Source: Caulobacterales bacterium
Lineage (GTDB): Bacteria; Pseudomonadota; Alphaproteobacteria; Caulobacterales; Caulobacteraceae
Length of the DNA: 51,148 nucleotides
Direction: 5' to 3'
Assembly (NCBI GenBank): GCA_027312185.1
Contig: DAICXL010000001.1
Coordinates: 1-51,148 of the forward strand
Both the position numbers and the translations under genes were made by a program. This document shows positions 536-37,301 of this stretch, piece after piece. The first letter of the stretch is position 1. Each line of letters opens with the position of its first letter. The notes under the pieces were generated by a model, which saw only the letters and a list, made by a program, of their open reading frames with translations, was not told the DNA's origin and ran no database searches.

Positions 536-547
536 GAGCCTCCACTC

Positions 548-6664: not shown

Positions 6665-6786
6665 AAGGAGCTGTCTTGCGGACCAGCCGCTTGACGAAGC
6701 CGAGGATAATCTAAGGGCAATTGAGGTCTTCGTATAGTGAAGATTTTTTCGCGATGCTGGTTTTTCGGTTCCCTTGGGAGGACGCC

Positions 6787-19764: not shown

Positions 19765-21729
19765 CTACAACTCCCCCACCGGAATGTGGCACCGGATCTC
19801 GTGTCCCGGCTCAGCCCCCGGCAGCATCGGCGGCTCCTGCTGCTCGCAGATCGGGCCCAGCTTCCTCGGACACCGTGTGTGGAAGACGCATCCGCCGGGC
19901 AAGTCGATAGCGCTGGGGATCTCGCCCTCCAGCCGCACCCGCGCGGCTGTGCCCTCCAGCGACGGGGCGGCCGACAGCAGGGCGGCGGTGTAGGGGTGGT
20001 GCGGGCCTGAGAACACCCGCTCGGACGGCCCGGTCTCCATCAGCCGGCCGAGATAGAGGACGGCGATGCGGTCCGACAGGTAGCGCACCGTCGCCAGGTC
20101 GTGGCTGATGAACAGATAGGCGACGCCCTCGCGCGCCTGCAGCTCGGCCAGCAAATTGAGGATCGCGGCCTGCACCGACACGTCGAGGGCCGAGGTCGGC
20201 TCGTCACAGACCACGATGCGCGGCCCGCCCGCGAAGGCCCGCGCAATGGCGACGCGCTGCTTCAGCCCGCCGGACAGCTGGGTCGCCCGCCGCTCCAGAT
20301 AGCGATCGGCGAGCTGGACCGAGCGGGTCAGGGCCAACAGCCGGGCGGGCAACTCCGCCCTGGGAACCCCGCCCAGCCGGGCCATCACCCGGCCGATCAG
20401 GCGGCGCACGCTGTGCGACCGGTTCAGCGCCGAGTCCGGGTTCTGGAAGACGATCTGCAGAGCCTTGAGCTGATCGCGCCGCCGTTTGGGGCCGAGAGCC
20501 TGGCCGTCCAGCTCCAGCAGGCCGCCTGGATCGGGAGCGACGAGGCCCAGGAGCAGCCGCGCCAGGGTGGTCTTGCCGCTGCCGGATTCCCCGACCAGCC
20601 CCAGGGTCTCGCCCGCCCGCAGGTCGAACGAAACCTCGTGCACGGCGCGGACGGGGCGCCCCGCGCCGCCGAAAGTCTTCGACAGCCGCGCCTTCAGGAT
20701 CGGCGCGCCCCGCTGGAACGGGACCGCCAGGTCGGCAGGGGTGGCGCGCGGCGTGGTCGGGGCCAGCTCCGGATAGTGGCAGCGGCTCAGCCGGCCTGCG
20801 CCCAGGTCGTGCAAGGGCGGCGGCTGGGTGCGGCAGAGGTCCGTGGCCAGGCCGCAGCGCGGGGCGAAGACGCAAGGGGAAACCGCCTCCCCCGCCGCCG
20901 GGGGAAAGCCCGGAATGGTGTCGAGCCGGCCGTGGTCCTTGCGGGCGCCGGGCCGCACCAGGCAGCGCATCAGAAGGGCGGTGTAGGGATGGCGCGGGCT
21001 GGCGAAGACTTCGCGCGTCGGCCCCTCCTCGACCAGGGTCCCGGCGTAGAGCACGCCGACGCGGTCGCACATGGCCGCCACCACCGCGAGGTTGTGGCTG
21101 ATGAACAGCAGGGCCATCCCGCGCTCGGCGCGGATGTCGGCCACCAGCTCCAGGATCTCGGCCTCGACCGTGGCGTCGAGGCCCGTGGTCGGCTCGTCGA
21201 GGATCAGCAGCTTCGATTCGGTCGCCAGGGCCATGGCGATGGCCACCCGCTGCTGCATGCCGCCGGACAGCAGGTGGGGATAGCGGTCGGCCACGGCGGC
21301 AGGGTCGGCGATCCGCACCCGGGCCAGCATCGCCACCGCCCGCGCCATGGCCTCGGCCGGCGCCAGGCCCTGCAGGCGGAAGATCTCGGCGATCTGCTCT
21401 CCGACCCGGATCGACGGGTTCAGCGCCCGGCCCGGGTCCTGATAGACCATCGAGACGTCCGTGGCCCGCAGACGGCGCAACCCCTCGGGGTCGAGGTCGT
21501 AGAGGTCGCGCCCCCCGACCAGGACCCGCCCGTCCGTCACCCGGCCGTTGGGCGGCAGATAGCGTACCGCCGCCAGGGCGACGCTCGACTTGCCCGAGCC
21601 GGATTCCCCGACCAGGCCATAGGACTCTCCGGCCGCGATGCTCAGGCTCAGCCCCCGCAGCACGGGCAGGTCCCGGCCGCGGACCCGGTAGGCGAGCTCC
21701 AGCGCCTCGAGCGACAGCGCCGCCGTCAT
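19765..21729 (-). CDS. ABC transporter ATP-binding protein, fused double ATPase (DppD/DppF-like)
   Basis: Two Walker A motifs (GESGSGKS, GESGSGKT), two LSGG signatures (LLSGGMQQRV, LSGGLKQRV) and two Walker B motifs (LLILDEPT, IVVCDEPT). ATG 21729 overlaps the upstream permease stop (ATGA). Confidence 0.85.
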   Translation of the reverse strand: MTAALSLEALELAYRVRGRDLPVLRGLSLSIAAGESYGLVGESGSGKSSVALAAVRYLPPNGRVTDGRVLVGGRDLYDLDPEGLRRLRATDVSMVYQDPGRALNPSIRVGEQIAEIFRLQGLAPAEAMARAVAMLARVRIADPAAVADRYPHLLSGGMQQRVAIAMALATESKLLILDEPTTGLDATVEAEILELVADIRAERGMALLFISHNLAVVAAMCDRVGVLYAGTLVEEGPTREVFASPRHPYTALLMRCLVRPGARKDHGRLDTIPGFPPAAGEAVSPCVFAPRCGLATDLCRTQPPPLHDLGAGRLSRCHYPELAPTTPRATPADLAVPFQRGAPILKARLSKTFGGAGRPVRAVHEVSFDLRAGETLGLVGESGSGKTTLARLLLGLVAPDPGGLLELDGQALGPKRRRDQLKALQIVFQNPDSALNRSHSVRRLIGRVMARLGGVPRAELPARLLALTRSVQLADRYLERRATQLSGGLKQRVAIARAFAGGPRIVVCDEPTSALDVSVQAAILNLLAELQAREGVAYLFISHDLATVRYLSDRIAVLYLGRLMETGPSERVFSGPHHPYTAALLSAAPSLEGTAARVRLEGEIPSAIDLPGGCVFHTRCPRKLGPICEQQEPPMLPGAEPGHEIRCHIPVGEL

Positions 21730-22556
21730 GACGCCAGGGCCTCCTGCACCCCGTCGGCGACGAGGTTGACCCCGATCACCAGCGAGGCGATCGCCGCGGC
21801 GTTGGCCAGCACGATCCACCATACCCCGCCGCTGAGCAGCCCGTAGTTCTCCGAGATGGCCAGGCCCCAGTCCGGAGAGGGCGGCTGGATGCCGAAGCCC
21901 ATGAAGCTGAGCGTCGCCACCGTGAAGACGGCGTAGCCGAGGCGCACCGTGGCCTCGACCAGGATCGGCGGGACGATGTTGGGCAGGATCTCGACGAACA
22001 GGATGTAACCGCCCCCCTCGCCCCGCAAACGGGCGGCGGCGACGTAGTCGAGGGCGCTTTCGGTCAGGACGGCGGCGCGGACGGTGCGCGCGATCAAGGG
22101 CGCGTAGATGACGCCGATCACCACGATCACCGTCGCGGTCGAGGGGCCGAGCGCCGCCAAGGCCAGCAGGGCGATGATCACCATCGGCAGGGCCAAAAGG
22201 GCGTCGATCACGCGGCTGACCGTCGCGTCGGCAAAGCCGCGGAAATAGCCGGTCACCAGGCCCAGGATCACGCCGCCCGCCACGCCGACCGCCGTGGCCA
22301 GGGGCGCGACCACCAGGATGTCCCGCGCGCCGACGATGACACGGCTGAACACGTCGCGGCCGAGCTGGTCGGTCCCGAACCAGTGCCCTCCCGACGGCGG
22401 GGCGAGGGCGGCGATGATGTCGGTCGCCAAGGGGTCGTGAGGGACCAGCATCGGCCCGAACAGGGCGCAGCCGATCCAGAACAGGATGATCGCCGCCCCC
22501 GCGACGACGGTCTTGGACCGCAGCAGTTGCTGAAGCCGCTCGCGCCCAGGGCTCAC
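21726..22556 (-). CDS. ABC transporter permease (DppC/OppC-like)
   Basis: GTG 22556 overlaps the stop of the upstream permease (GTGA). Motifs HWFGTDQLGRDVFSRV and the EAA-loop region AAARLRGEGGGYILFVEILPN are present. Confidence 0.85.
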   Translation of the reverse strand: MSPGRERLQQLLRSKTVVAGAAIILFWIGCALFGPMLVPHDPLATDIIAALAPPSGGHWFGTDQLGRDVFSRVIVGARDILVVAPLATAVGVAGGVILGLVTGYFRGFADATVSRVIDALLALPMVIIALLALAALGPSTATVIVVIGVIYAPLIARTVRAAVLTESALDYVAAARLRGEGGGYILFVEILPNIVPPILVEATVRLGYAVFTVATLSFMGFGIQPPSPDWGLAISENYGLLSGGVWWIVLANAAAIASLVIGVNLVADGVQEALAS

Positions 22557-23515
22557 GCGCCCGCTCCGTGGCGGATGCGCGGGTTCAGCCAGGCCGACAG
22601 CACGTCGGCCACCAGGGCGGCGGCGGCGTAGATCAGCCCCACCGTCAGCACCCCGGCCTGGAGGACCGGGAAGTCCTTCTGCTGGGCCGCCTTGAAGATC
22701 AGGCTGCCGATGCCCTGGTAGCGGAACAGGATCTCGATCACGACCAAGCCCCCGATCAGGGTGCCGAGCTGGGTGGCGATGACGGTGATGGTGGGCAGCA
22801 GGGCGTTGCGCAGCACGTGGCGCCAGATCACGGCCTGGCGCGGCAGGCCCTTGAGCACGGCGGTGCGGGTGTAGTCGGCCGCCAGCACGTCCAGCACCCC
22901 GGCCCGCACCATCCGCGCCAGATAGCCGAACAGGGCCAGCACCAGCGGCAGGGACGGCAGAAGCAGGTAGCGCAGTTGCGTCAGGGGCCCGGCGCCGGGG
23001 GGCCAGTCGGCGCTGATCGGCAGCACCTTCAGCCACACCCCGAAGATCAGGATCAGCACGATGCCGGTGACGAACTCCGGCAGCACCGTCGCCGACAGGC
23101 CGACCAGGCTGACGACGCGGTCGACGGCCCGCCCCGCATGCAGCGCCGCCCACACCCCGGCGGCGATGCTGAGCGGCACGACCAGCACGAAGGCGACGGC
23201 GCCGAGCTTCAGGGAATGGCCGAGGGCCGCGGCGATGATCGGCCCGACCGGCGTGCGGAAGGCGTAGGACACCCCCATATCGCCGCGTACGAAGCCGCCG
23301 ATCCAGTCCAGGTATTGGGTCAGCAGCGGCCGATCGAGGCCGTACTGCTGGTTGAACGTATCGACCGCGCGCTGATCGGCCAGCGGCCCCAGCATGGCGC
23401 GGGCCGCGTCCCCGGGCAGCAGCTGGCCGCCGACGAAGACGATGACGCTGAGCAGCCACAGGGTGACCAGGGTCAGGCCGAGCCGCTTGAGGAGGATGCC
23501 GAAAAAGCCCGTCAT
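22553..23515 (-). CDS. ABC transporter permease (DppB/OppB-like)
   Basis: N-terminus ILLKRLGLTLVTLWLLSVIVF and EAA-loop YTRTAVLKGLPRQAVIWRHVLRNALLP. 320 aa. Confidence 0.85.
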   Translation of the reverse strand: MTGFFGILLKRLGLTLVTLWLLSVIVFVGGQLLPGDAARAMLGPLADQRAVDTFNQQYGLDRPLLTQYLDWIGGFVRGDMGVSYAFRTPVGPIIAAALGHSLKLGAVAFVLVVPLSIAAGVWAALHAGRAVDRVVSLVGLSATVLPEFVTGIVLILIFGVWLKVLPISADWPPGAGPLTQLRYLLLPSLPLVLALFGYLARMVRAGVLDVLAADYTRTAVLKGLPRQAVIWRHVLRNALLPTITVIATQLGTLIGGLVVIEILFRYQGIGSLIFKAAQQKDFPVLQAGVLTVGLIYAAAALVADVLSAWLNPRIRHGAGA

Positions 23516-23646
23516 CCTCGGGCGGAGGCGCGAAGCGCCGCAGACCCGAGGACCCAGCAGCTCCCGCCCTGTCCGTTTCGCAACCCAGCTTCACCGTGGA
23601 GCTTGCTGGGTCCTCGGGTCTTCGCTGCGCTACGCCCGAGGATGAC
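23511..23646. repeat. 136-bp imperfect palindromic (REP/MITE-like) element inside the ABC operon
   Basis: Outer arms gtcatcctcgggcg (23511-23524) and cgcccgaggatgac (23633-23646) are perfect 14-mers. Inner arms acccgaggacccagcagctc (23544-23563) and gagcttgctgggtcctcgggt (23599-23619) pair over 20 bp with one bulge. The left outer arm contains the permease start codon (23515-23513). Confidence 0.6.
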
Positions 23647-23667
23647 GGAGTTGGGGTGCGCCATATC

Positions 23668-24507
23668 TCAGTAGTACCCGTGGGACGAGGCCGAGATGGG
23701 CCTCCCCTGCTCCACCCCGTCGATCACCACCTTGTCGACGAACTCGTCGTAGAAGCTGACCAGCCCCTTGATGCGGGCCGCCTCGTGCACCGGGTCGGGG
23801 TAGTACCAGACCACGTTCTCGTGCCGCTTCCCGCCGACCTCGAGGTGATAGTAGCTGGCGATCCCCTTGTAGGGGCAGCGCGAGATGTAGCGGCTGGGCC
23901 GGAACATATCGAGCCGGGTGTCGGCGATCGGCATATAGATGCGGGTGTTCAGCCCGGTCTCGAACAGGAAGGTGGCGCGGCGGGTGTCGGCCACCTTCTC
24001 GCCGCCCAAATAGACCTCGACATGCCGCGAGGACGGCAGGGTGTCGATGCGCCGGTACGGATCGCGGGCGTGGACGAAGACCTCCTCGTCCTCCTCGTAC
24101 CAGTGGTTCATCTTGTTCCAGTAGAAGGCCATGTAGCCCTCGATCGGCGGGCAGCCCTCCACCGGCTCCAGATAGCGCCAGCCGGCGTCCTCCACGAGGG
24201 TGACGCCTGTGTTCAGGGAGTAGTGCGTGGCGACGCCCTTGAACGGCGACTCCGTCTTGGTCGAGGAGCTCATCAGGAACTCCTCGCGCACGTCCTTCAT
24301 CGGGAAATAGTACACCGGCAGGTGATCGGACTCGTACATGACGAGCCCTTCGATGGTGTCGGCGACGAAGATGTCGCCCACCTTGATGCGCAGCCGCTTG
24401 GGGCTCGGCATCATGAAGACGACATAGCCCGGCTCGGCCTCGTACTGCACGACGCGGTCGAGAATGGGGAAGTGCGGCCCGCGGCCGCGCAGGTGGGCTT
24501 TGCGCAT
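23668..24507 (-). CDS. Tandem DUF427 domain protein (two DUF427 repeats)
   Basis: Repeat 2: SSRHVEVYLGGEKVADTRRATFLFETGLNTRIYMPIADTRLDMF...CPYKGIASYY...GLVSFYDEFVDKVVIDG. Repeat 1: KRLRIKVGDIFVADT...LPVYYFPMKDV...SPFKGVATHY...YMAFYWNKMNHWYEEDEEVF. The start lies 2 nt after the binding-protein stop. Confidence 0.7.
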   Translation of the reverse strand: MRKAHLRGRGPHFPILDRVVQYEAEPGYVVFMMPSPKRLRIKVGDIFVADTIEGLVMYESDHLPVYYFPMKDVREEFLMSSSTKTESPFKGVATHYSLNTGVTLVEDAGWRYLEPVEGCPPIEGYMAFYWNKMNHWYEEDEEVFVHARDPYRRIDTLPSSRHVEVYLGGEKVADTRRATFLFETGLNTRIYMPIADTRLDMFRPSRYISRCPYKGIASYYHLEVGGKRHENVVWYYPDPVHEAARIKGLVSFYDEFVDKVVIDGVEQGRPISASSHGYY

Positions 24508-24509
24508 GG

Positions 24510-26168
24510 TCAGCTCCGGGTGACGCGGTCGAGCAGGAGGCCGGCGGCGATGGGCGGCAGGCCGGTGATCCCCTTGCGCACGGGCACGAGCAGGTTGGGG
24601 AAATAGCTGATGATCACCGGCGTCTCGTCCAGCAGCAGCCGCTGGATGTCGCCCGCTGCGGCGCGCTGGGCCGCTGGATCGAGGGCGCGGGTGTAGCGCG
24701 CCACCAGGGCGTCATAGGCAGGGCTCTTGAAGTGGGCCGCGTTCCAGGCCCCGTCGCTGCGCAGGGGATTGCCGAGGGCGACGTCCGGCGTGGCCCGGTG
24801 GGCGTAATCGGTGATGCCGAATTCGCTGTCCAGCCAGTCGGACTGGCCGGGGACCGACTTGCCATAGTACTGGCCCTGGCTCTCCACCTTCAGGGCGATG
24901 CGCACGCCGATGGCCTTGGCCTGGTCCTGGATCAGCTGGGCGTACTGGGCGATGTCCGAGTACTGCATCGCCGTCAGGGTCACGTCGAAGCCGCCGGCCT
25001 TGCCGGCGTCGGCCATCAGCTGCCTGGCCTTGGCGATATCCTGGGTCCGCTGCGGCACGGCCGGGTCGGTGGACGGGTAGAACGACCCGAACGGGCTGTC
25101 GTTTCCGATGGTCGCCATGCCGTGGCACAGGCCGTCCACCAGAGTCTTGCGGTCAAGACACAGGGCCAGCGCCTGGCGCACCCGCTTGTCGGCGAAGGGG
25201 CCCGTGTCGCACTTCATGTGCACCTGGCGATGGCTGGCCGACTGCACGCGGATCAGCTCGATGGCGGGATTGCGCTGCAGGCTGGGGGCCAGGACGATCG
25301 GCACGGCGTCGAGGATATCGACCTCGCCCGCCTGCAGGGCGAGCAGGCGCGGCTGCGGCTCGGCGTAGAACTTGAACTCGATGCGGTCCGGCAGGGCCTT
25401 GTCGCCCCAGTACTCCGGGTTGCGCACCAGGCTGGCCCCGACCCGCGGCCGGTACGCCTCCATCCGGAACGGGCCGGTTCCGATGAAGCTGGCCTCATAG
25501 TTCCCGGCGTATGTCGCCGGCAGGATCACCGCATTGTAGTTGTCGATCGACACCGCGTACGGGAAGTTCCCGTTCGGGGCGTCGAGGTGGAAGGCCACCG
25601 TATAGTCGTCGACCTTGCGGCACCCGCCCTTGGACAGGACGCCCTTGAACACCGACAGGGCGTTGGATCCACCCTTGGGGTCCGACAGCCGATCGAAGGT
25701 GGCGACCACGTCGGCGGCTGTCATCACCTGGCCGTCGTGGAACTTCACCCCCCTGCGCAGCTTGAAGGTCCACACCGATCCGTCGGTGTTGGGGCTCCAG
25801 CTCTCGGCCAGCACCGGCTTGAGGGTCAGGTCCGGCTGGGTGACGCAGAGGAATTCGGCGGTCTGGAAGAACAGCTGGTAGCTGCCGCTGTCGTGGACCG
25901 TGACCGGATCGACGGCGCCGACCGGCACGGCGATCCCAGCGGTGATGGTCCCGCCCGGCTTGCCGCCCTGGGGGGCCGCCGCCTGCTGGGGCCCGTCGCC
26001 GCACGCCGCCAGCCCGCCCAGCAACGGCAGGCCGAGGCCGAGGACGCTGCCCGCGCGCAGGAAGGCGCGGCGGTCGAGCCGGCCGCTCAGCCACTCGTCG
26101 ACGAGGGCGTTCCCCGCCCCGCCCAGCCCGGCCCGGGCGCCGTCGATCAGCCTGTGGTCAGCGCCCAT
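24510..26168 (-). CDS. ABC transporter substrate-binding protein, family 5 (DppA/OppA-like), TAT-exported
   Basis: Twin-arginine signal LDRRAFLRAGSVLGLGLPLLGGLAACG. 552 aa. It is the first gene of the minus-strand operon 26168->19765. Confidence 0.85.
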   Translation of the reverse strand: MGADHRLIDGARAGLGGAGNALVDEWLSGRLDRRAFLRAGSVLGLGLPLLGGLAACGDGPQQAAAPQGGKPGGTITAGIAVPVGAVDPVTVHDSGSYQLFFQTAEFLCVTQPDLTLKPVLAESWSPNTDGSVWTFKLRRGVKFHDGQVMTAADVVATFDRLSDPKGGSNALSVFKGVLSKGGCRKVDDYTVAFHLDAPNGNFPYAVSIDNYNAVILPATYAGNYEASFIGTGPFRMEAYRPRVGASLVRNPEYWGDKALPDRIEFKFYAEPQPRLLALQAGEVDILDAVPIVLAPSLQRNPAIELIRVQSASHRQVHMKCDTGPFADKRVRQALALCLDRKTLVDGLCHGMATIGNDSPFGSFYPSTDPAVPQRTQDIAKARQLMADAGKAGGFDVTLTAMQYSDIAQYAQLIQDQAKAIGVRIALKVESQGQYYGKSVPGQSDWLDSEFGITDYAHRATPDVALGNPLRSDGAWNAAHFKSPAYDALVARYTRALDPAAQRAAAGDIQRLLLDETPVIISYFPNLLVPVRKGITGLPPIAAGLLLDRVTRS

Positions 26169-26707: not shown

Positions 26708-27658
26708 TCAGTCCGCGCGGGGACTTTCGCGGCCCTCGTCCGCATAGGCTTCGCGGAAGGCCGGGCCGCCGATCTTGCCGCCCAGCTCCTTGCACGCCTT
26801 GGCGTGGACGCGGCGGTATTCGGCCCACAGCGCCTCGGACCTGTTCTTCATGAACATCGACTGGCCCTGGAGGGCGTCGGCGACGGCGTCGGGCGAGAGG
26901 TCGGCCAGGAGCGCGTCGATCACCGCCTGCGCGCCTGCCGCTTGCCGCACCTGGTGGTCCCCCACGTCCTCGAACGAGGCGCGTACGGCCGCGTCGCTGC
27001 TGAGGAAGCCCTCCTGCCGCGCCTGCAGCAGGTCTATGGCCACGCGCTGAGGCGGCGCCCAGCGGAACGGATTGTTGTCCAGCGCCTGGACGGACGTCCA
27101 TTCCAGACCGTGCTCGGCCTTGGCCCGGGTCCGCTCGTCCACCAGCTTACCTAGTCCCTGGACCATCTCGCGGTAGACTGCGCCCAGACGGCGCATCACC
27201 TCGGTGGGGTCCTCGGCCGAGAGCACCGAGGAATCGATCTGGGCGCCGCTGCAGAAGGCGTCGAGGAGCCGCCCCGCCTGGGTCTCGTCGGCGGGGGGCG
27301 GGATGGTCGTGGCCGGCGCCGGCTCGGCGAGCGCGGCCTGCGGCGGCTGGGCCTCGATGCGGATCAGGAAGGCGCCGAGAACGACCGCGTCGCCGATGTT
27401 CACCGGCGTCGGCGTCTTGGCCGGCAGCCGCTCGCCCCCGATCAGCGAGACGCCGTTGGTGCTGTCGTCGCGCACGCTCACCACGCCGTCCTTGAGGGCG
27501 AACAGGCAGTGCCGGCGCGACAGGGTCCGGGTCGGGTCGTCGATGGCCCAGTCGGCGCCCTTGTCGCGGCCGACCACGATCTCGCCCTCGGCCAGCACGC
27601 GGCTGGCCAGTTCGATCGCCGGGGCGTCGGCCTCAAAGAGCCGCAGGACCACCGTCAT
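26708..27658 (-). CDS. FHA-domain protein, TagH (T6SS-associated FHA protein)-like architecture
   Basis: N-terminal FHA: GEIVVGRDKGADWAIDDPTRTLSRRHCLFALKDGVVSVRDDSTNGVSLIG. The C-terminal half shows the pattern I associate with TagH/ImpI: LLDAF..GA...EDP..., NNPFRW, FEDVGDHQ, FREAYADE. ATG 27658 overlaps the EAL gene stop (ATGA). Confidence 0.7.
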   Translation of the reverse strand: MTVVLRLFEADAPAIELASRVLAEGEIVVGRDKGADWAIDDPTRTLSRRHCLFALKDGVVSVRDDSTNGVSLIGGERLPAKTPTPVNIGDAVVLGAFLIRIEAQPPQAALAEPAPATTIPPPADETQAGRLLDAFCSGAQIDSSVLSAEDPTEVMRRLGAVYREMVQGLGKLVDERTRAKAEHGLEWTSVQALDNNPFRWAPPQRVAIDLLQARQEGFLSSDAAVRASFEDVGDHQVRQAAGAQAVIDALLADLSPDAVADALQGQSMFMKNRSEALWAEYRRVHAKACKELGGKIGGPAFREAYADEGRESPRAD

Positions 27659-29334
27659 CCGACGGCCTTTCGCGGCAGGCGCGTGGGCTCCGGCGCCAGA
27701 CGGCCCAGCCACGCCTGGTCACGGGCGGCGGTCACGAAGGCGGCGGCGGCGAGGGGGCGCGAGAAGTAATAGCCCTGGAACAGCCGGCACCCCATCTCGC
27801 GCAGGGCCTCGACCTCTTCGGCCGTCTCCACCCCTTCGGCGAGCAGTTGGATGTCGAGACCGCGGGCCAGGGCGATCAAGGCGGCGCAGATGGCGCGGCT
27901 GTCGCGGCGCTTATCCACGTCTGTGACGAACTCGCGGTCGATCTTCAGCTTCGAGAACGGCAGGTTCTTCAGATAGCTCAGGCTGGAATAGCCGGCGCCG
28001 AAGTCGTCGATGGCGACGCTGACGCCTTGCGAACGCAGCTCGCCCAGCAGGCGGCGGATATGGTCGGCGTCTTCCATCGCCGCCGTCTCGGTCAGTTCCA
28101 GCTCCAGGCAGGACGAGGCCATGCCGTGACGCTCCAGCGTCCGCATCACCATCTCGCTCAGGCGGGGATCGCGGCATTGGGTGGCCGACAGGTTCACGGC
28201 GATCTTGAGGTCGTCCAGCCCCTGGCCGCGCCAGGCGCAGGCCTCTCGGCAGGCGGTGTTGAGCACCCAAAGGCCGACCTCGGCCATCATCGGCGACTGT
28301 TCGAGGATGGGAATGAACTGGTTCGGGGCGACCAGGCCCAGCTTGGGATGGCGCCAGCGCAGCAGGGCTTCGGCCCCGACCATCCGGCCGGCCTCGACGT
28401 CGACCACGGGCTGGTAGTGCAGCAGCAGTTCGTCGCGGCTGACGACGCCGCGCAGATCCTGCTCGAGAGAGAAGCGGTCGCGGGCCGCGGCCGAGCCCTG
28501 GGCGGAGAAGAAGGCCACCTTCTGGCCGGCGGTACGGCCGATCTCCAGGGCGGCGATGGCGCGGGTGAGCAGTTCGGCCGGGGCGGTCCCGTCCTCGGGA
28601 AACACGGCGGCGCCGATGGCGATGCCAGGAGTCAGGGTCAGGTCGCCGGCCTTGAGCTCCTGGCCCAGCACATAGGCGAGGGCCTGCATCTCCTGCGCGG
28701 CCGCCTGCTGGCCCTGGGCGCCGCGGAACCAGACCGCGAAGCAGTCGCGGTCCGCCTGAGCCACAGGACGGGAGGGGGGAACCGAGGCGCGAAGCCGTCC
28801 GGCGAAGGCGCGCAGGGCGAGATCCGCGGCGGCCTGGTCGAAGGCGGCGAGGCGGTCGTAGTCGGCGAACCGCACCACGCCCAGCACCACGGGGCCCGCG
28901 GCGTCCTGCACGTCGCCGATCAGCTCGGCCAGGAACGGCTCGCGGGTCGGCAGGCCGGAGACCGGATGGCGGTTGGTCAGGCGCTGGCGCATTCCGTCGA
29001 TCCGGACGCCCAGCTCGGTCACGGCGCCGACCATGCCGCCGGCGCCCTTGGGATTGGGGGCGGCCCGCGGTTCGTCGTCGGTCTCGGGGGCCTCGTCAGC
29101 CAGGCAGGCGCGCAGGCCCCGCGCCACGGCGGCCAGAGGGCGGACCAGATAAGCGAGGAAGAGAAGGGCCAGCAGGCTGGCGCCCAGGGCCACGAAGACG
29201 GGGCCGACCGGCCCGTCCCGCGTCCACAGGACCAGGGCGGGAAACCCCGCCGCAAGCACGGCGCACGCCACGACCGCCGCCGGAAAGCGGTGGACGGGCG
29301 GGGCCAGCTCAGCAGTGGAAGACGTCTTCTGCAT
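27655..29334 (-). CDS. Membrane-anchored degenerate-GGDEF / EAL protein (probable c-di-GMP phosphodiesterase)
   Basis: Two N-terminal TM helices. The GGDEF position reads DRDCF (nt 28738-28752), and the upstream metal/GTP-contact residues also diverge. The EAL domain is intact: GAEALLRW, NLS, ELTE, DDFGAGYSS, KIDREF, EGVE, QGYYF. Confidence 0.85.
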   Translation of the reverse strand: MQKTSSTAELAPPVHRFPAAVVACAVLAAGFPALVLWTRDGPVGPVFVALGASLLALLFLAYLVRPLAAVARGLRACLADEAPETDDEPRAAPNPKGAGGMVGAVTELGVRIDGMRQRLTNRHPVSGLPTREPFLAELIGDVQDAAGPVVLGVVRFADYDRLAAFDQAAADLALRAFAGRLRASVPPSRPVAQADRDCFAVWFRGAQGQQAAAQEMQALAYVLGQELKAGDLTLTPGIAIGAAVFPEDGTAPAELLTRAIAALEIGRTAGQKVAFFSAQGSAAARDRFSLEQDLRGVVSRDELLLHYQPVVDVEAGRMVGAEALLRWRHPKLGLVAPNQFIPILEQSPMMAEVGLWVLNTACREACAWRGQGLDDLKIAVNLSATQCRDPRLSEMVMRTLERHGMASSCLELELTETAAMEDADHIRRLLGELRSQGVSVAIDDFGAGYSSLSYLKNLPFSKLKIDREFVTDVDKRRDSRAICAALIALARGLDIQLLAEGVETAEEVEALREMGCRLFQGYYFSRPLAAAAFVTAARDQAWLGRLAPEPTRLPRKAVG

Positions 29335-29426
29335 CTACTGCATCGGGTCTCGGTTTACACGCACACCCTAATCTCAAGGTGCTTCCGCGAGATGAACGGC
29401 GATGCTTAACCCGGTCGAAAGCCTGG

Positions 29427-29441
29427 CCTGTTAACAACAGG
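29427..29441. promoter_or_regulatory. Candidate operator CCTGTT-aac-AACAGG in the divergent EAL / kinase spacer
   Basis: Perfect 6-3-6 dyad in the 151-bp AT-richer spacer between starts 29334 (-) and 29486 (+). Confidence 0.25.
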
Positions 29442-29485
29442 GCTGAACTGAGGGGCGACATGCGGCTGTCGACGGACACTTCAAC

Positions 29486-31195
29486 ATGCAAGCACGGGCC
29501 GGGATCATGGCGGTGAACGCGCTTCCTGCCGACGACGAGCGGACGGTCTTCCAGCCGGAAACCTCGCAGCCGGCGACCGATGGACCCGCCCCGCCGCCGC
29601 GTCACGGCCGCAGCGGCTTGCCGGCCGGCACGCTCCTGAACAACATCTATGAAGTCCGCCGCTTCCTGGCCCGCGGCGGCATGGGCGAGGTGTACGAGGG
29701 CGTCAACGTCAACACCGACGAGCGCGTCGCCATCAAGGTGATGCTGCCGCACCTGGCCGCCGACCCCAAGGTCCAGGCCATGTTCCGCAAGGAGGCGCGC
29801 ATCCTGACGGAGCTCGCCCACCCGGCCCTGGTGCGCTACCGCGTCCTGGCGCACGAGCCGGATCTCGAGCTCTTCTACATCGTCACCGAGTTCATCGACG
29901 GGCGCTCCCTGTCCGACCTCCTGGGCGAGATCCGCCCCACGGCCGACCAGTTGAAGGCCCTGATCCGACGCCTCGCCGAGGGCCTCGCAGCCGCCCACGC
30001 CATGGGCGCGACGCACCGGGACATGTCGCCGGACAACGTGCTTCTGCCCCATGGCCGGCTCGACCAGGCCAAGATCATCGACTTCGGCATCGCCCGCGAA
30101 ACCAGCCTTTCGCACCAGACCGTCGTCGGCGAAGGCTTCGCCGGCAAGCTGGGCTATGTGGCGCCCGAGCAGTTCGGCGACTTCGGCCGCCGTATCGGTC
30201 CGTGGACCGACATCTACAGCCTGGGCCTCGTCGGCCTGGCCCTGGCCTCCGAGCGCGCGCCGGACATGGGGGTCACCCTGGTCGACGCGGTCGACCGCCG
30301 CCGCCAGGGCATGGACCTCGATTCCGTGCCCTCATCCCTGCGGCCGATCTTCAGGAAGATGCTGGCGCCGGATCCCAGCCATCGGTTCCAGACCATGGCC
30401 GAGGTGATCGCGGCCGTGGACGCAGTCGGCCAGCCCGCTCCTCCCCCCTCCCCAGCCGTTACGGCCCCATCCTTCATGCAAGCCGCGCAGCCCCCAGCCG
30501 CGCAGCCCGGGCCGGCGCCTCTGACGGCCGGGCTTTCGGAGGATTCCGAGCCCGCGTCCCACGGGGCGAAAGGGTGGCTGATCGGCGGCGCCGCTCTCGC
30601 GATCGTGGCCGCCGTCGCCGTCGTCGTCGGGATGGGCGGCCAGCCCAAGCCCAAGGCCGGACCGCTGGAAAACGTCGTGCCCATCGGCCCCGCGATCATC
30701 GAGGGGCCCATCCCCGAAGCGGTCCCCCTCGGGGCCACGCCCGAAACGGGCGCCGAAACGGGGACGTCCGCTGAGACCCCGGCCGTCCCCGCCACGGCGC
30801 CGGCCCTCGCCAAGCCGAAGCGGCCGCCGCCCGGCCAGGCCCGCGGCGAGGTGGTGATGGCCACGCCCGCACCGATAGCCCCGCCCCAGATCGTCGCCGC
30901 GGCGCCGATCGCCTTGCCTGCTCCGGTGGAGCCTGTCGCGGCTACCGCATCGGCCGCCGAAAAAGGCGTCGAGGCCTGCTGGCGCGCGACAGGCGGCGAG
31001 TGGAGCTACATCGGCTACGCCGCCCGTTCGAGCTGCGCCGCCCAGGCCTTCAACAGCTGCCAGGTGGTGCACGGCCGCTGGGGCAAGACCCGGATGCGGC
31101 GCTACGACGGCAAGCTGCAGGCCAAGGGGACCGGGCTGCTGGCCAAGTGGCAGACTGTGGGAACCTCGCACTGCCCCGCCGGCGCTGCGCCGTGA
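29486..31195 (+). CDS. Hanks-type Ser/Thr protein kinase with one TM helix and an extracytoplasmic Pro/Ala-rich linker plus 4-Cys C-terminal domain
   Basis: GGMGEVY, VAIK, HRDMSPDN, DFGIA and GYVAPEQ are all intact. TM helix is WLIGGAALAIVAAVAVVVGMGG (aa 363-384). Cys498/517/525/563 sit in the last 75 aa. ATG 29507 is an alternative start. Confidence 0.85.
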   Translation: MQARAGIMAVNALPADDERTVFQPETSQPATDGPAPPPRHGRSGLPAGTLLNNIYEVRRFLARGGMGEVYEGVNVNTDERVAIKVMLPHLAADPKVQAMFRKEARILTELAHPALVRYRVLAHEPDLELFYIVTEFIDGRSLSDLLGEIRPTADQLKALIRRLAEGLAAAHAMGATHRDMSPDNVLLPHGRLDQAKIIDFGIARETSLSHQTVVGEGFAGKLGYVAPEQFGDFGRRIGPWTDIYSLGLVGLALASERAPDMGVTLVDAVDRRRQGMDLDSVPSSLRPIFRKMLAPDPSHRFQTMAEVIAAVDAVGQPAPPPSPAVTAPSFMQAAQPPAAQPGPAPLTAGLSEDSEPASHGAKGWLIGGAALAIVAAVAVVVGMGGQPKPKAGPLENVVPIGPAIIEGPIPEAVPLGATPETGAETGTSAETPAVPATAPALAKPKRPPPGQARGEVVMATPAPIAPPQIVAAAPIALPAPVEPVAATASAAEKGVEACWRATGGEWSYIGYAARSSCAAQAFNSCQVVHGRWGKTRMRRYDGKLQAKGTGLLAKWQTVGTSHCPAGAAP

Positions 31196-31938
31196 GCCGC
31201 GCCATGGCGCTCAGCCCCGCGCCCCGGCGGGGCGCGACCGCCGCCGCCCGCACCGACGTCGGCCTGGTCCGCGGCTCCAACGAAGACGCCTTCCTGACCC
31301 GATCCGCCGCCGGCCTGTGGGCCGTCGCCGACGGGATGGGCGGCCACGAGGACGGCGAATGGGCCGCCGCCGCCATCGTTCGCGCCCTGGACGATATCGC
31401 CATCCTCGGGGACTTCGAGGCCGACCGCACCGCGGTGGCGCAGGGCGTCCTCGCCGCCAACGCCGTCATCCACCAGCGGGCCCAGGCCTACCGCCTGCGC
31501 ATGGGCTCCACCGTCGTGGCCCTCCTGGTCGGCGACGACCGCTTCGCCGTGGTCTGGGCCGGCGACAGCCGCGCCTACCGGCTGCGGGACGGCGCCCTGG
31601 TCCAGCTCACCACCGACCACACCCAAGTCCAGGCCAAGGTCGCCCGCGGCGAGATGACCGTCGCCGAAGCGCGGGTGCATCCGATGGCCCATGTGCTGAG
31701 CCGCGCCGTCGGCGCGGAAGCCGACCTCAACCTTTCCAGCCTGGACGGCGACGTCCAGGCCGGCGACGTCTTCCTGCTGTGCAGCGACGGCCTCCACGGG
31801 ATCGTGTCGGGTCCGGAGATCGCCGCCGCCCTCGCCCAAGGTGCCCCGGACCAGGCCTGCGAGCAGCTGGTCGCCCGCTGCCACGCCAGGGGCGCCCCGG
31901 ACAACATCACCTTGGTGATCGTCGCCGCCGGGGCCTGA
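31192..31938 (+). CDS. PP2C-family Ser/Thr protein phosphatase
   Basis: RTDVGLVRGSNEDAF, ADGMGGH, LLCSDGLHG and DNITLVIV motifs. GTG 31192 overlaps the kinase stop (GTGA). ATG 31204 is the alternative start. Confidence 0.85.
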   Translation: MSRAMALSPAPRRGATAAARTDVGLVRGSNEDAFLTRSAAGLWAVADGMGGHEDGEWAAAAIVRALDDIAILGDFEADRTAVAQGVLAANAVIHQRAQAYRLRMGSTVVALLVGDDRFAVVWAGDSRAYRLRDGALVQLTTDHTQVQAKVARGEMTVAEARVHPMAHVLSRAVGAEADLNLSSLDGDVQAGDVFLLCSDGLHGIVSGPEIAAALAQGAPDQACEQLVARCHARGAPDNITLVIVAAGA

Positions 31939-33703: not shown

Positions 33704-34462
33704 GTGCCCATACCCCCGCAGAACCTGCGCCGCCGGTCCAACAGGGCGGGGCGCCTGCTGGCCACCGCCGTCAGCGTGGCGGCCCACGGCGGCTTGGCGG
33801 TGGTGCTGTTCTCCACCTATGCCGGCACGCCCCCGACCCCGGAGCCCGAGCCGGTCAGCGTCACCCTGTTCGACGCCTTGCCGCCGTCGCCCAAGCCTGA
33901 CCCGGCGCCGGCGCCCCCCGCCCCCCAGGCGGCGCCCGTCCCCGAACCGCCCGCCGCGCCCAAGCCGACCCCGCGCCGCGACCCGCCGCCGAAAAAGTCC
34001 GCCATACGCAAGGCCAAGGTTCCGCCCCGGGTGGCGGCCATCGCCGCGCCGGAAGAGGCCGAGGAAGAGACCGTCGTCTCCGAGCTGAACGATTCAGAGC
34101 TGGGCGGAGCGACCACCGCCGGCTCGGGTCCGTCGGGGCGCGGCTGCGACATGGTGCGGGCGCTGGAAAACGCGCTGCGCAAGGACCGTCTGGTCCAGGC
34201 CGCCGTGGCGCAGGCCCATACGGGCAAGGCCATGCTGGTGTGGAACGGCGACTGGGTGAAGAGCCCCGGCCAGGAGGGCAAGGGCCTGGCCGCCGTGCGC
34301 CAGGCGATCATGTGGCAGGTGGCCTTCTCCCCCGAGCCCTGCCGGACCGAGCCGGTACGGGGCCTGGTGCTGATCTCGCTGCGAGACGGGCCTGGCGCCG
34401 CCCGCCTGGCCGTCGGCGGCGGCCAGTGGCGCTGGAGCGACCTTGTCAGCACGCGGCGCTGA
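33704..34462 (+). CDS. Membrane-anchored proline-rich protein (TonB-like N-terminus, unrelated C-terminal domain)
   Basis: GTG 33704 follows GGAGG. Single TM helix LLATAVSVAAHGGLAVVLF, then a long (P-x)n/PEP-type spacer. The C-terminal ~110 aa lacks the TonB C-terminal signature. Confidence 0.5.
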   Translation: MPIPPQNLRRRSNRAGRLLATAVSVAAHGGLAVVLFSTYAGTPPTPEPEPVSVTLFDALPPSPKPDPAPAPPAPQAAPVPEPPAAPKPTPRRDPPPKKSAIRKAKVPPRVAAIAAPEEAEEETVVSELNDSELGGATTAGSGPSGRGCDMVRALENALRKDRLVQAAVAQAHTGKAMLVWNGDWVKSPGQEGKGLAAVRQAIMWQVAFSPEPCRTEPVRGLVLISLRDGPGAARLAVGGGQWRWSDLVSTRR

Positions 34463-34659: not shown

Positions 34660-35763
34660 ATGAGGAAGGCGCTCTTGGGAGCCGCCGGCGCCGGCTTGTT
34701 GGCGCTGGCCTGCGCCCAACCGGCCAAGGCCCAGGAGGCGGGGGCCAACCCCTCCGGCGATCTCGAGATTCTCCCCGTGAAGGGTGCGGTCTGGGCCATA
34801 TTCGGCGCCGGCGGCAACATCACCGTTTCGGTCGGCAAGGACGGCGTCTTCATGGTCGACACCGGCCTCGCGGCGAACGCCGATCGGGTGCTGGCGGCCG
34901 TGCGGCGTATCCAGGCCATCGTCCAATTGCGCGAGGGGGCGCCTGGCCTGGGCTACGGGGCCGAGACCCGGGGCACGCTGCAGCGCTCGCTGAGCCCCCT
35001 GGATCCGCCCAAGCCGATCCGCTTCATCGTGGACACTCACGCCCACCCTGACCACGTCGGCGGCAACGCCAGGATCAGGGCGGCGGGCCGGACCTTCACC
35101 GGCGGCAATGTGGCCAACGATATCGGAGACGCGGCCGAAGGCGCCATGGTGATGGCGCACGAGAACGTTCAGTCCACCCTGACGAGCCCCCCGCCGGGGG
35201 TATCGCCCGCGGCCGACGACGGGCTGCCCACCACCACCTATTACGGAGCCGCGTCCAAGTTCAGCCACTTCTTCAATGGGGAGGGCATACAACTCTTCCA
35301 CCCGACCAACGCCCACACCGACGGCGACACCTACGTCTATTTCCGCGGCTCGGACGTGATCGCCACCGGCGACCTGTTCGTCCAGGACTCCTACCCGGTC
35401 ATCGATCTGGCGCGCGGCGGCACGATCAACGGCGTCATCGACGCGATCAACGCCATCATCGCCATCTCGGTCCCCGAGTACCGCACCGAGGGCGGGACCA
35501 TGATCGTACCCGGCCACGGTCGCATCTCTGACCTGGCCGACCTCGCCTACTACCGAGACATGATCACCATCATCCGCGACCGGGTGCAGGCGATGGTCGA
35601 TCGCAAGATGACCCTGGACCAGGTCAAGGCCGCCCGGCCGACTCGGGACTACGACCCTCGCTGGGGGGCCACGAGCGGCCCCTGGACCACCGACCAATTC
35701 GTTGAGGCGATCTACCGCAACCTGCAGCCGGTTGCGCGTGGTCGCGGGCAGGCGCGCCGATGA
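34660..35763 (+). CDS. Exported MBL-fold metallo-hydrolase
   Basis: Signal peptide MRKALLGAAGAGLLALACAQPAKAQ. HxHxDH motif in VDTHAHPDHVGGN. GGAGGA RBS. Confidence 0.8.
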   Translation: MRKALLGAAGAGLLALACAQPAKAQEAGANPSGDLEILPVKGAVWAIFGAGGNITVSVGKDGVFMVDTGLAANADRVLAAVRRIQAIVQLREGAPGLGYGAETRGTLQRSLSPLDPPKPIRFIVDTHAHPDHVGGNARIRAAGRTFTGGNVANDIGDAAEGAMVMAHENVQSTLTSPPPGVSPAADDGLPTTTYYGAASKFSHFFNGEGIQLFHPTNAHTDGDTYVYFRGSDVIATGDLFVQDSYPVIDLARGGTINGVIDAINAIIAISVPEYRTEGGTMIVPGHGRISDLADLAYYRDMITIIRDRVQAMVDRKMTLDQVKAARPTRDYDPRWGATSGPWTTDQFVEAIYRNLQPVARGRGQARR

Positions 35764-37301
35764 TCATGCAGATGCAACCCTCCCGGGCAGCCCGCGCGAC
35801 GCAGCGCCTCCTCCTCGCGGCCGTCGCCGCCTTTGTCGTCTCGTCCCCCGCCGCCGCCCAGGTCGACCTGAGCGGTGAATGGGGCGTGCGCTTCCATGAG
35901 GACAACCCCGAGCGGGGCACCGGGCCGGACCTCGGCGAATATTACGGCATCCCCCTCAGCGACGCGGCGCGCTGGCGCGGCGAGGCCTGGAACGGCGCCG
36001 TGATGACCGAGGCCGAGTGGCAGTGCCGCCCGCACGGGGCCGACTATATCTGGCGCGGGCCTTCGGCCTTGATGATCTCCAGGAAGATCGACCCCACCTC
36101 CCGCGACGTCACCGAATTCAATCTCGAGTGGCTGCGCTCCATCGAGCGGCCGGTCTATCTCGACGACCGCCCTGCCCCGTCGCCCAACGCCCCCCATACC
36201 TGGGCCGGCTTCTCCAAGGCCAAGTGGGTCGGCGACATGCTCATGGTGCAAACCACGCACCTGAAGGAGAGCTACCTGCGCCGCAACGGCCTGCCCCGCA
36301 GCGACAAGGCCACGCTCACCGAATATCTGATCCGCAACAACGACGTGCTGACCGCCGTCGCCCTGATGCACGACCCCGTCTACCTGACCGAGACCTTCAT
36401 CCGCACCACCGACTACGAGCTGGACCTCAAGCAGCATATCCCGCCCTACCCCTGCCACGTGGTCGAGGAGATCGACCGGCCGGCCGGCCAGGTGCCCCAC
36501 AATCCGATGAACTCGGACCGGTCCCAGGAAGAGTTCGCGGCCAAGTGGAAGATCCCGATCGATCAGGTGCGCGGCGGCGCGCGGACGATGTACCTGCCGG
36601 GCGCCCCGGTGAGTCCGGCCAAGGGACAGACGGGGGCCTCGACCCGTCCGGGCGTCCCGATCGATCTCACCGGGACCTGGATGGCGGTCGTCAGCGAGGA
36701 CTGGCGCTGGCGCATGATGACCCCGCCGAAGGGCGACTTCGCCAGCGTCCCTCTGAACACGGAAGGTCAGAAGGTTCTGGCCGCCTGGGACCCCGCGCGC
36801 GACGCCGGCGCCGGTCAGCAGTGCAAGGCCTACGGCGCTCCGGCGGTGATGCGCCGCCCGGGCCAGATCCGCATCTCCTGGGCGGACGAGCGGACGATGA
36901 AGCTCGAGACAGAGGCGGGAAACCAGGCCCGCAACTTCCTGTTCGGGGCTGAGCCCGCCCCGGCGGGCGGCGCCAGCCTGCAGGGCGTGTCGCGGGCCAA
37001 CTGGCAGACGCCGGGCCGTCCCGCGCGCGGGGCCGCGCCTCCGCCCGGCGGCTCGCTGCGGGTGGTCACCACCAATCTGTCCGAGGGCTACCTGCGCAAG
37101 AACGGCGTGCCCTACAGCGCCGGGGCCCGGTTGACCGAATACTACAACCGCATCGACGACCCTGACGGCGCCTCTTGGCTGATCGTCACCACGGTGGTGG
37201 AGGACCCGGCCTATCTGACCGGCCGCTTCATCACGAGCTCTCACTTCCGCCGGATGGTCGACGACAATCCCTGGACTCCCGCCCCCTGCACCGCGAACTG
37301 A
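35760..37301 (+). CDS. Secreted protein of unknown function with an internal domain duplication
   Basis: ATG overlaps the MBL gene stop (ATGA). Signal peptide ...VVSSPAAAQ. Two repeats: LSGEWGVRFHED / LTGTWMAVVSED; ESYLRRNGLPRSDKATLTEY / EGYLRKNGVPYSAGARLTEY; HDPVYLTETFIRTTDY / EDPAYLTGRFITSSHF. Confidence 0.6.
   Translation: MIMQMQPSRAARATQRLLLAAVAAFVVSSPAAAQVDLSGEWGVRFHEDNPERGTGPDLGEYYGIPLSDAARWRGEAWNGAVMTEAEWQCRPHGADYIWRGPSALMISRKIDPTSRDVTEFNLEWLRSIERPVYLDDRPAPSPNAPHTWAGFSKAKWVGDMLMVQTTHLKESYLRRNGLPRSDKATLTEYLIRNNDVLTAVALMHDPVYLTETFIRTTDYELDLKQHIPPYPCHVVEEIDRPAGQVPHNPMNSDRSQEEFAAKWKIPIDQVRGGARTMYLPGAPVSPAKGQTGASTRPGVPIDLTGTWMAVVSEDWRWRMMTPPKGDFASVPLNTEGQKVLAAWDPARDAGAGQQCKAYGAPAVMRRPGQIRISWADERTMKLETEAGNQARNFLFGAEPAPAGGASLQGVSRANWQTPGRPARGAAPPPGGSLRVVTTNLSEGYLRKNGVPYSAGARLTEYYNRIDDPDGASWLIVTTVVEDPAYLTGRFITSSHFRRMVDDNPWTPAPCTAN

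Follow-up and report, generated by a model that had tools for sequence, protein, structure and literature searches.

A TagH-like FHA adaptor, a Hanks-type kinase and a PP2C phosphatase encoded with a predicted c-di-GMP phosphodiesterase, apart from type VI secretion genes, in Caulobacterales and Sphingomonadales

Introduction

In the H1 type VI secretion system (H1-T6SS) of Pseudomonas aeruginosa, a regulatory set is made up of the kinase PpkA, the PP2C phosphatase PppA and the adaptor Fha1 (TagH), with TagQRST as the input. In the PpkA-TssL-Fha pathway of Agrobacterium tumefaciens, a TagH-family FHA adaptor docks on the phosphothreonine (pThr) of a membrane protein and switches it on, and in Bdellovibrio bacteriovorus the FHA-GGDEF diguanylate cyclase DgcB is activated by a phosphorylated peptide. 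This study concerns a four-gene cluster in a 51,148-nt stretch of DNA from a Caulobacterales bacterium (contig DAICXL010000001.1), which is nearly all of one 51.6-kb contig and is referred to here as the window. The cluster encodes a TagH-like FHA adaptor, a membrane Hanks-type Ser/Thr kinase, a PP2C phosphatase and a membrane-anchored EAL protein. Its anatomy and conservation suggest that it is probably a switch that works by threonine phosphorylation independently of T6SS, with a TagH-family adaptor at its centre and a link to a cyclic dimeric GMP (c-di-GMP) phosphodiesterase. We know of no earlier description of a TagH-like adaptor, a phospho-switch and an EAL phosphodiesterase in this combination.

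The TagH family co-occurs with a kinase and a phosphatase in T6SS loci (Boyer et al. 2009, PMC2660368). Like the H1-T6SS set, the module described here has the triad of a membrane Hanks kinase, a PP2C phosphatase and an adaptor that joins an FHA domain to a T6SS_FHA_C domain, and eight invariant residues of the C-domain are common to its adaptor and canonical TagH. In the common form of the module a lipoprotein is also encoded beside the kinase, which is reminiscent of TagQ. However, no T6SS genes lie near the module, its adaptor, with a short linker, is shorter by a third, its kinases have Cache/HAMP domains or a four-Cys tail but no von Willebrand A (vWA) domain, its lipoprotein is of a TPR/LysM type and its constant partner is an EAL phosphodiesterase.

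For docking of the adaptor on the membrane-anchored EAL protein or on the kinase, the A. tumefaciens pathway is the closest analogy, though the phospho-target there is the T6SS core protein TssL, which is absent at the module. DgcB is a precedent showing that FHA-pThr recognition can gate a c-di-GMP enzyme, and FHA-phosphopeptide structures of DgcB were among the sequence and fold matches of the adaptor. DgcB itself, however, is a fusion of an FHA domain with a cyclase that makes c-di-GMP, whereas the module has a separate FHA protein with a TagH C-domain, a phosphodiesterase as its partner, and a dedicated kinase and phosphatase encoded beside the adaptor. The actinobacterial PknB/PknA, PstP and FhaA/FhaB cluster and PASTA-kinase systems likewise unite a Hanks kinase that has a cell-wall-related sensor with a PP2C phosphatase and FHA adaptors, and the best NCBIfam matches of the module's kinase and phosphatase were to PknB_PASTA_kin and Stp1_PP2C_phos, both below cut-off. 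The module differs from these in that its sensor is a LysM lipoprotein plus Cache/HAMP domains, or a four-Cys tail, rather than PASTA repeats, and in its TagH-type adaptor C-domain and its putative EAL output partner. Finally, the EAL protein shares with HmsP, DibA and LapD a transmembrane (TM) anchor, an inactive GGDEF-like domain and an EAL domain, but it has a minimal periplasmic loop and no detected HAMP domain, and a Ser/Thr phospho-switch is encoded alongside it.

Results

The four genes of the window form two divergent pairs whose products have intact catalytic and phospho-binding residues, are inherited together across related genomes and lie apart from T6SS genes. All four open reading frames (ORFs) were top-scoring in a codon-usage gene caller and have the coordinates of the original prediction. 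The features of the cluster, in window positions, are as follows.

26708 to 27658, minus strand: TagH-like adaptor, 316 aa, with an FHA domain, a short linker and a T6SS_FHA_C domain (Pfam, TIGR03354)
27350 to 27658, minus strand: FHA domain, residues 1-103, with pThr-binding G30-R31, S47-R48-x-H50 and N68-G69
26738 to 27280, minus strand: all-helical T6SS_FHA_C domain, residues 127-307 (PF20232; AlphaFold2 (AF2) model)
27655 to 29334, minus strand: membrane-anchored degenerate-GGDEF / active-type EAL protein, 559 aa, HmsP/DibA-like (PF00563, PF00990)
29143 to 29280, minus strand: two-helix TM hairpin of the EAL protein, residues 19-64 (hydropathy scan)
28522 to 28959, minus strand: degenerate GGDEF-like domain, residues 126-271, with QADRDCF in place of GG[DE]EF
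27754 to 28461, minus strand: EAL domain, residues 292-527, with EALxR, N, ExxE, DDFG(T/A/S)GYSS, KxD, EGVE and QG intact
29335 to 29485, no strand: divergent intergenic spacer with a conserved block of ~55 nt (four-locus alignment)
29486 to 31195, plus strand: Hanks-type Ser/Thr kinase, 569 aa, with a kinase domain, a TM helix, a Pro/Ala-rich segment and a four-Cys domain (PF00069)
29648 to 30394, plus strand: kinase catalytic domain, residues 55-303 (Pfam)
30578 to 30634, plus strand: single TM helix of the kinase (hydropathy score 2.58)
30947 to 31192, plus strand: four-Cys extracytoplasmic tail domain, ~80 aa, presumed sensor, conserved in loci L002 and L003
31192 to 31938, plus strand: PP2C-type Ser/Thr phosphatase, 248 aa (PF13672, PF00481)

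A scan of one genome per GTDB species gave 153 relatives, and the best 80 loci, which were examined, all belong to Caulobacterales or Sphingomonadales. Carriers among these 80 include Phenylobacterium, Caulobacter, Terricaulis, Vitreimonas, Hyphomonadaceae and Henriciella in the former order and Sphingomonas, Sphingobium, Novosphingobium, Qipengyuania, Stakelama and Sphingosinicella in the latter. Complete genomes with the operon include those of Sphingomonas donggukensis, Sphingomonas sp. PAMC 26617 and SUN019, Phenylobacterium sp. LH3H17, P. terrae and Stakelama marina, as well as the metagenome-assembled chromosomes OZ241340 and OZ257238 of 3.3-3.5 Mb. A few metagenome-assembled genomes with the operon have other phylum labels (Binatia or Eremiobacterota; loci L052 and L069 and protein P0365 are concerned), and these contigs are probably mis-binned, as their proteins are typical of Sphingomonadales/Caulobacterales.

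Partner genes were counted by tblastn with the window proteins, with the EAL and kinase genes scored only at the 67 species-level loci whose upstream DNA extends for at least 4.5 kb. The TagH-like gene was found together with both the EAL and the kinase gene at 66 of these 67 loci, and with the PP2C gene at 59 of 64, which rules out chance adjacency of the module genes. Across loci, the pairwise identities of the four shared proteins co-vary (r = 0.65-0.82). Conservation of the FHA-EAL link and of the kinase and PP2C neighbourhood in related genomes was a check set by the original prediction, which would have been abandoned if TagH models had failed to match the FHA protein or if the link to the EAL gene had not been kept; neither was the case, because TagH models match and the EAL link is conserved at 66 of 67 loci in both orders.

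Clustering of all called proteins showed that the window does not have the dominant layout. At most loci the genes are collinear on one strand in the order EAL, a protein of ~240 aa, kinase, FHA and PP2C, with frequent 4-nt overlaps at the EAL/240-aa protein, kinase/FHA and FHA/PP2C junctions. No gene is conserved beyond these five, and the flanks vary by locus. The ~240-aa product is a lipoprotein in which TPR repeats flank a peptidoglycan-binding LysM domain (LysM found in 41 of 42), and its gene, for example at 7494-8204 in L013 and 7547-8272 in L076, is translationally coupled to the EAL gene. The kinase of this five-gene form consists of a kinase domain, a TM helix, a periplasmic Cache-like domain, a second TM helix and a HAMP domain; HAMP was detected in 59 of 60 such kinases and sCache_3_2 in 24 of 60 at E<=0.001. 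One Caulobacterales-type genome (L084/L085, 5532-11796) has the operon with the kinase gene inverted, directly downstream of mdoG/mdoH-like genes for periplasmic-glucan synthesis; both arrangements were seen once.

The original prediction that the C-terminal half of the FHA protein is of the TagH/ImpI type is borne out. PF20232 (T6SS_FHA_C) matches at E=1e-32 over profile positions 2-178 of 180, the score with the NCBIfam TagH model TIGR03354 is 173.8 bits, above the curated cut-off of 120.25, and the motifs LLDAF..GA, NNPFRW, FEDVGDHQ and FREAY fall on conserved columns of the family alignment. By these profile and motif matches, the C-terminal half of the adaptor is a bona fide TagH-type domain. 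The FHA domain (PF00498, E=1.7e-11) has pThr-binding GR, SxxH and NG residues that are invariant in the 28 family members aligned; its AF2 model has a confidence score (pLDDT) above 90, and Foldseek aligned it with solved FHA domains down to E=1e-8. AF2 modelled residues 120-316 at pLDDT 87.4 and a predicted TM-score (pTM) of 0.76. A fold search of the C-domain against the PDB gave no match (best E 2.2), and a sequence search for solved structures related to the adaptor found them for the FHA domain only and none for the C-domain. One of the eight residues invariant in short and canonical TagH proteins is Thr188 of the window adaptor, which stands directly ahead of the NNP(F/L)(R/K)(W/F) motif and, in AF2 models, in the loop that joins a long helix to the NNPF helix. 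It is plausible that Thr188 is a phospho-acceptor common to the module adaptor and the TagH proteins of T6SS. The site that PpkA phosphorylates in P. aeruginosa Fha1 is reported to be Thr362.

The adaptor nevertheless does not group with canonical TagH by sequence or by size. When 5.8 billion proteins were searched with it, ~90 clusters of 300-360 aa matched at 169-689 bits, and a gap in score separates these short TagH-like proteins (at least 169 bits) from canonical TagH/ImpI of 415-550 aa (at most 111 bits). In a neighbour-joining tree of the C-domain alone, with ten canonical sequences as comparison, the short clade was monophyletic in 50 of 50 bootstraps. A profile of the Sphingomonadales members matched at least 642 clusters at E<=1e-30, all of ~330-345 aa, and cultured carriers among them include strains of Sphingomonas, Sphingobium, Stakelama, Sphingosinicella and Phenylobacterium. 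When canonical TagH was used for a profile search, the relatives that came up were all metagenomic or uncultured. Short-clade proteins appear in databases as 'type VI secretion system-associated FHA domain protein TagH', 'FHA domain-containing protein' or 'hypothetical protein'. In collinear-type adaptors the linker has a conserved motif PLG.S..VP.DW.D (about residues 122-135 of the L076 protein), of which P122, P130 and W133 are invariant in ten isolates, and in the subclade of the window this motif has shrunk to (T/A)(I/L)P (about residues 117-125 of the window protein; nt ~27284-27310). The motif could serve for docking or as a phospho-acceptor.

As originally predicted, no T6SS genes were found in the window. 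A Pfam scan of its 47 called ORFs of at least 60 aa (43 flanking ORFs and the four cluster genes) gave no T6SS family besides the adaptor's own PF20232. Likewise, 12 T6SS core and accessory proteins from a canonical locus, PAAR not being among the queries, had no tblastn match at E<=0.01 in 1.43 Mb of DNA, which comprises the window and 81 related loci with ~10 kb of flank each. As a control, canonical TagH from the query T6SS locus matched at 81 of 81 loci. The two canonical TagH proteins nearest to the module adaptors in score are both encoded within complete T6SS loci: in the first, from which the 12 queries came, the order is TssB, TssC, Hcp, TssE, TssF, TssG, TagH, TssJ, TssK, TssL, TssM, TagF, VgrG, and the second locus has a PP2C and a kinase gene downstream as well. 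Neither in the window nor at any of the 81 related loci does the adaptor gene lie within or beside a T6SS core cluster. By its locus the adaptor thus lacks the T6SS association that defines TagH, and by its alignment scores and tree it has a clade of its own.

The EAL protein has two predicted TM helices, which are joined by a minimal loop, and no periplasmic domain, and the Phenylobacterium terrae orthologue has an identical hairpin layout. Its PF00563 match is strong (E=9.5e-77), and in the orthologue alignment the EAL catalytic positions are conserved in 51 of 51 sequences or nearly so. The GGDEF match (PF00990) is weak, at 35 bits and E=1.4e-8, and the GG[DE]EF signature of a diguanylate cyclase is missing; the window has QADRDCF in its place, and (Q/H)(V/I)DRDCF is kept in 51 orthologues. 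The description in the original prediction of a 2-TM protein with a degenerate GGDEF and an intact EAL domain was therefore accurate, and by its motifs the protein qualifies as a predicted c-di-GMP phosphodiesterase. It falls below the cut-off of every NCBIfam equivalog; its best similarities are to DibA (318.7 bits, cut-off 980) and HmsP (245.6 bits, cut-off 733). An EAL protein that consists of a TM hairpin and lacks a sensor is consistent with a regulated output beside a membrane kinase.

The window kinase (PF00069, E=2.6e-34) has one TM helix and an extracytoplasmic tail of ~185 aa. The VAIK, HRD, DFG and APE motifs are present and, like an activation-loop Thr, are conserved throughout the 70 kinases compared. 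Its catalytic loop (29993-30016), however, reads HRDMSPDN, as in other window-type kinases, with Ser in place of the catalytic-loop Lys of the common-type kinases (HRDIKPSN, n=67). The original description as a catalytically intact kinase with one TM helix and a periplasmic tail is thus correct for the topology and the key motifs and has to be qualified for the catalytic loop. The best NCBIfam match, PknB_PASTA_kin, is below cut-off. With a PpkA-type kinase the window kinase shares the kinase domain and the TM helix but neither the vWA domain, for which kinases of both forms gave no Pfam match, nor a T6SS locus. The parts expected from the comparison with PpkA, PppA and Fha1 are all present, but the kinases are not PpkA-like. 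The four-Cys domain of the tail has no Pfam family and is rare: a search of 1.84 billion proteins gave 14 representative clusters. Some of the matching proteins consist of this domain alone (67-154 aa) and others are longer and end in it, and of six scanned matches of at least 228 aa five have a Hanks kinase domain, the exception being the 228-aa one, which had no Pfam match.

The phosphatase matches PF13672 (PP2C_2, E=5e-11; 43 bits, cut-off 24) and PF00481 (42.2 bits, cut-off 20.3), and scores 186.7 bits with NF033484 (Stp1/IreP), under the cut-off of 230. All of the metal-binding motifs DGxGG, GDSR, SDG and DN are present and are conserved in 59 orthologues, as expected from the original call of an intact PP2C. 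The GTG that overlaps the kinase stop (GTGA, 31192-31195) does exist, but it and ATG 31204, 9 nt past the stop, are equally possible starts.

The divergent layout (PP2C downstream of the kinase on one strand, FHA downstream of EAL on the other) was seen on six independent contigs with different neighbours in each: the window, L002 and L003, which are its closest GTDB relatives, and the metagenomic L083 and contigs of P0006 and P0023. When the window, L002 and L003 were searched with a profile hidden Markov model (HMM) of 50 family members, no LysM lipoprotein came up; the sole match, a TPR protein at 6754-7353, was considered as a hidden lipoprotein and rejected as unrelated. The kinases of the two forms are 30% identical over half of their length, in the kinase domain only, compared with 56% within the common form, whereas the FHA, EAL and PP2C proteins are 41, 52 and 44% identical between the forms and 46, 51 and 47% within the common form. 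Going by these identities, the window kinase is a non-orthologous replacement of the usual Cache/HAMP kinase, and the four-gene form is derived, with the lipoprotein lost and the kinase swapped. Because the kinase was swapped while the other three proteins are orthologous, the adaptor, phosphatase and EAL protein are the conserved core of the module and the sensor kinase is an interchangeable part.

The arrangement of the EAL and FHA genes bears on the original proposal that their overlap implies fixed stoichiometry. The EAL stop and the FHA start do overlap as ATGA (27655-27658; ggATGAcg), but the overlap is confined to the subclade of the window. Because the common order is EAL, LysM lipoprotein, kinase, FHA and PP2C, the two proteins would be wired together at the level of the operon and not by fixed stoichiometry.

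The spacer between the divergent pairs measures 151 bp, as first reported, with the called kinase start and 172 bp if the alternative ATG 29507 is used. A block of ~55 nt within it (29371-29425, plus strand TCTCAAGGTGCTTCCGCGAGATGAACGGCGATGCTTAACCCGGTCGAAAGCCTGG) is kept in all four divergent-type loci aligned, at ~8236 in L002, ~8124 in L003 (where it is partly duplicated) and ~6185 in L083, although the proteins of these four loci are only 50-75% identical. The block is absent from collinear-type loci. A sigma-70 consensus scan of the spacer gave no match, and a riboswitch or other RNA element was rejected as it had no Rfam match. In the direction of the kinase, the block resembles a promoter of the extracytoplasmic function (ECF) type (putative TGAAC-N17-TCGAAA).

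G+C content is ~70% all along the window, and the flanking ORFs encode a peptide ABC transporter, amidohydrolases, dehydrogenases, transcription regulators and similar proteins. Directly downstream of the FHA gene is a complete peptide/opine-type ABC transporter operon (19765-26168, minus strand) with a family-5 solute-binding protein, two permeases and a fused double ATPase, and with a tandem-DUF427 gene in its middle (23668-24507); it is not kept beside the module at other loci. Three well-supported ORFs of 446, 252 and 513 aa (15018-16358, 33704-34462 and 35760-37301, all plus strand) had no Pfam match at E<=0.001; in the 252-aa protein (33704-34462), a Pro-rich stretch comes after a TM segment. 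Two tandem paralogous genes for DUF6644 membrane proteins (14-1144, plus strand) occupy the left end of the window.

Discussion

The data reported here suggest that, in its most probable reading, the module is a T6SS-independent phosphorylation switch that acts through a TagH-family adaptor and is coupled to a c-di-GMP phosphodiesterase. Under this model, the membrane Hanks kinase would sense an envelope or periplasmic cue, in the five-gene form through its Cache-like periplasmic domain and HAMP domain together with the TPR/LysM (peptidoglycan-binding) lipoprotein, and in the four-gene form through the rare four-Cys tail domain. The kinase would then autophosphorylate, phosphorylate the adaptor or do both, so that pThr could be carried by the kinase, the adaptor or the EAL protein, and the FHA domain of the adaptor would dock onto it. 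The helical TagH-type C-domain would engage the membrane-anchored degenerate-GGDEF/EAL enzyme and alter the hydrolysis of c-di-GMP, through its activity or its assembly, and the PP2C phosphatase would reset the switch. The phosphorylation partners, the EAL activity as the output and the nature of the signal are all inferred from protein anatomy and conservation. The presence of a LysM/TPR lipoprotein and a Cache-like domain in the common form hints at a cue from the cell wall or the periplasm. The EAL enzyme as the regulated output is the simplest reading, given that it is the sole other constant member, has an intact EAL site and lacks a sensor of its own; the specific direction, that the switch controls the EAL protein and not the reverse, is held with less confidence than the overall model.

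Several points weigh against this model. Clustering of genes indicates a shared function of the adaptor and the EAL protein but not which of them acts on the other, and in the common form the EAL gene does not adjoin the FHA gene. The T6SS_FHA_C domain, whose role in the model is putative, gave no structural match in the PDB (best E 2.2). With Ser in place of the catalytic-loop Lys, the activity of the window kinase is less certain. Five loci have no recognizable PP2C gene, and L069 is the sole locus without the EAL and kinase genes upstream. The evidence on T6SS genes covers the window and the locus flanks. The original prediction spoke of a switch re-targeted from T6SS, which is only one possible direction of evolution.

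The alternative that survives best accepts a working phospho-switch but makes the EAL protein an input or scaffold that sets or reads local c-di-GMP, with the adaptor governing another envelope process such as peptidoglycan remodelling or a polar or surface organelle. This is rather unlikely, though the LysM/TPR lipoprotein of the common form does point to the cell wall, the EAL protein is only a putative partner of the C-domain, and the TagH C-domain of T6SS would have a large membrane machine, not an enzyme, as its target. However, no further conserved gene that might encode such a process accompanies the operon, since the flanks differ at each locus. The EAL catalytic residues are all invariant, which speaks more for an enzyme than for a pure sensor, and the window form has dropped the LysM protein but retained the EAL protein.

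A T6SS encoded at another site of the genome, with the module as its detached post-translational regulator and the EAL gene as a co-regulated passenger, is considerably less probable. TagH, PpkA and PppA do co-occur in T6SS loci as accessory genes (PMC2660368), the adaptor scores above the curated threshold of the TagH model, and a T6SS beyond the window and the locus flanks would lie outside the DNA covered here. But none of the 81 loci has a T6SS gene within ~10 kb, whereas canonical TagH genes are embedded in T6SS clusters; the adaptor clade is separate, shorter and monophyletic; its constant partners are the EAL protein and the LysM lipoprotein and not T6SS parts; and the kinases lack the vWA domain of PpkA. 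The family is also abundant in Sphingomonas (at least 642 protein clusters). To our knowledge, T6SS is not typical of that genus.

An anti-phage defence module built on a Ser/Thr kinase, similar to PD-T4-6, is highly improbable: both kinase types match the PADLOC PD-T4-6 and mad6 models (E=1e-55 to 1e-98), but these are generic matches that span the kinase domain only, the FHA, EAL and LysM proteins have no PADLOC match, and the vertical conservation of co-varying proteins in two orders, the housekeeping and metabolic neighbours and the periplasmic sensor domains are all atypical of defence islands.

The favoured model of a T6SS-independent switch coupled to the EAL phosphodiesterase has a broader form, which is more tentative. 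In it, the TagH C-domain would be a general kinase-controlled adaptor that is not specific to T6SS, the module of Sphingomonadales and Caulobacterales would use threonine phosphorylation to convert an envelope or peptidoglycan cue, sensed by an exchangeable Hanks kinase with or without the LysM lipoprotein, into altered degradation of c-di-GMP, and the invariant loop Thr ahead of NNPF(R/K)W would be the phospho-acceptor in this pathway as well as in T6SS.

As far as is known, c-di-GMP turnover is otherwise fed mostly by two-component systems and ligand-binding sensor domains, and the module, if the model is correct, would add a route into it from Hanks-type Ser/Thr signalling. It would also mean that a TagH adaptor functions outside type VI secretion, and the operon would be a simpler system in which to study its C-domain. 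The module is a likely source of systematic mis-annotation, as hundreds of proteins of Sphingomonas, Sphingobium, Phenylobacterium and related organisms would be over-annotated under the name TagH, and this naming of short-clade proteins can mislead surveys of T6SS. The exchange of the kinase, with the adaptor, phosphatase and EAL protein kept, would be a clean case of modular rewiring of sensory input. Taken at the level of its domains, the module is a known phospho-switch architecture with a T6SS-type adaptor that appears to have been recombined with a c-di-GMP phosphodiesterase and new sensor modules in two alphaproteobacterial orders.

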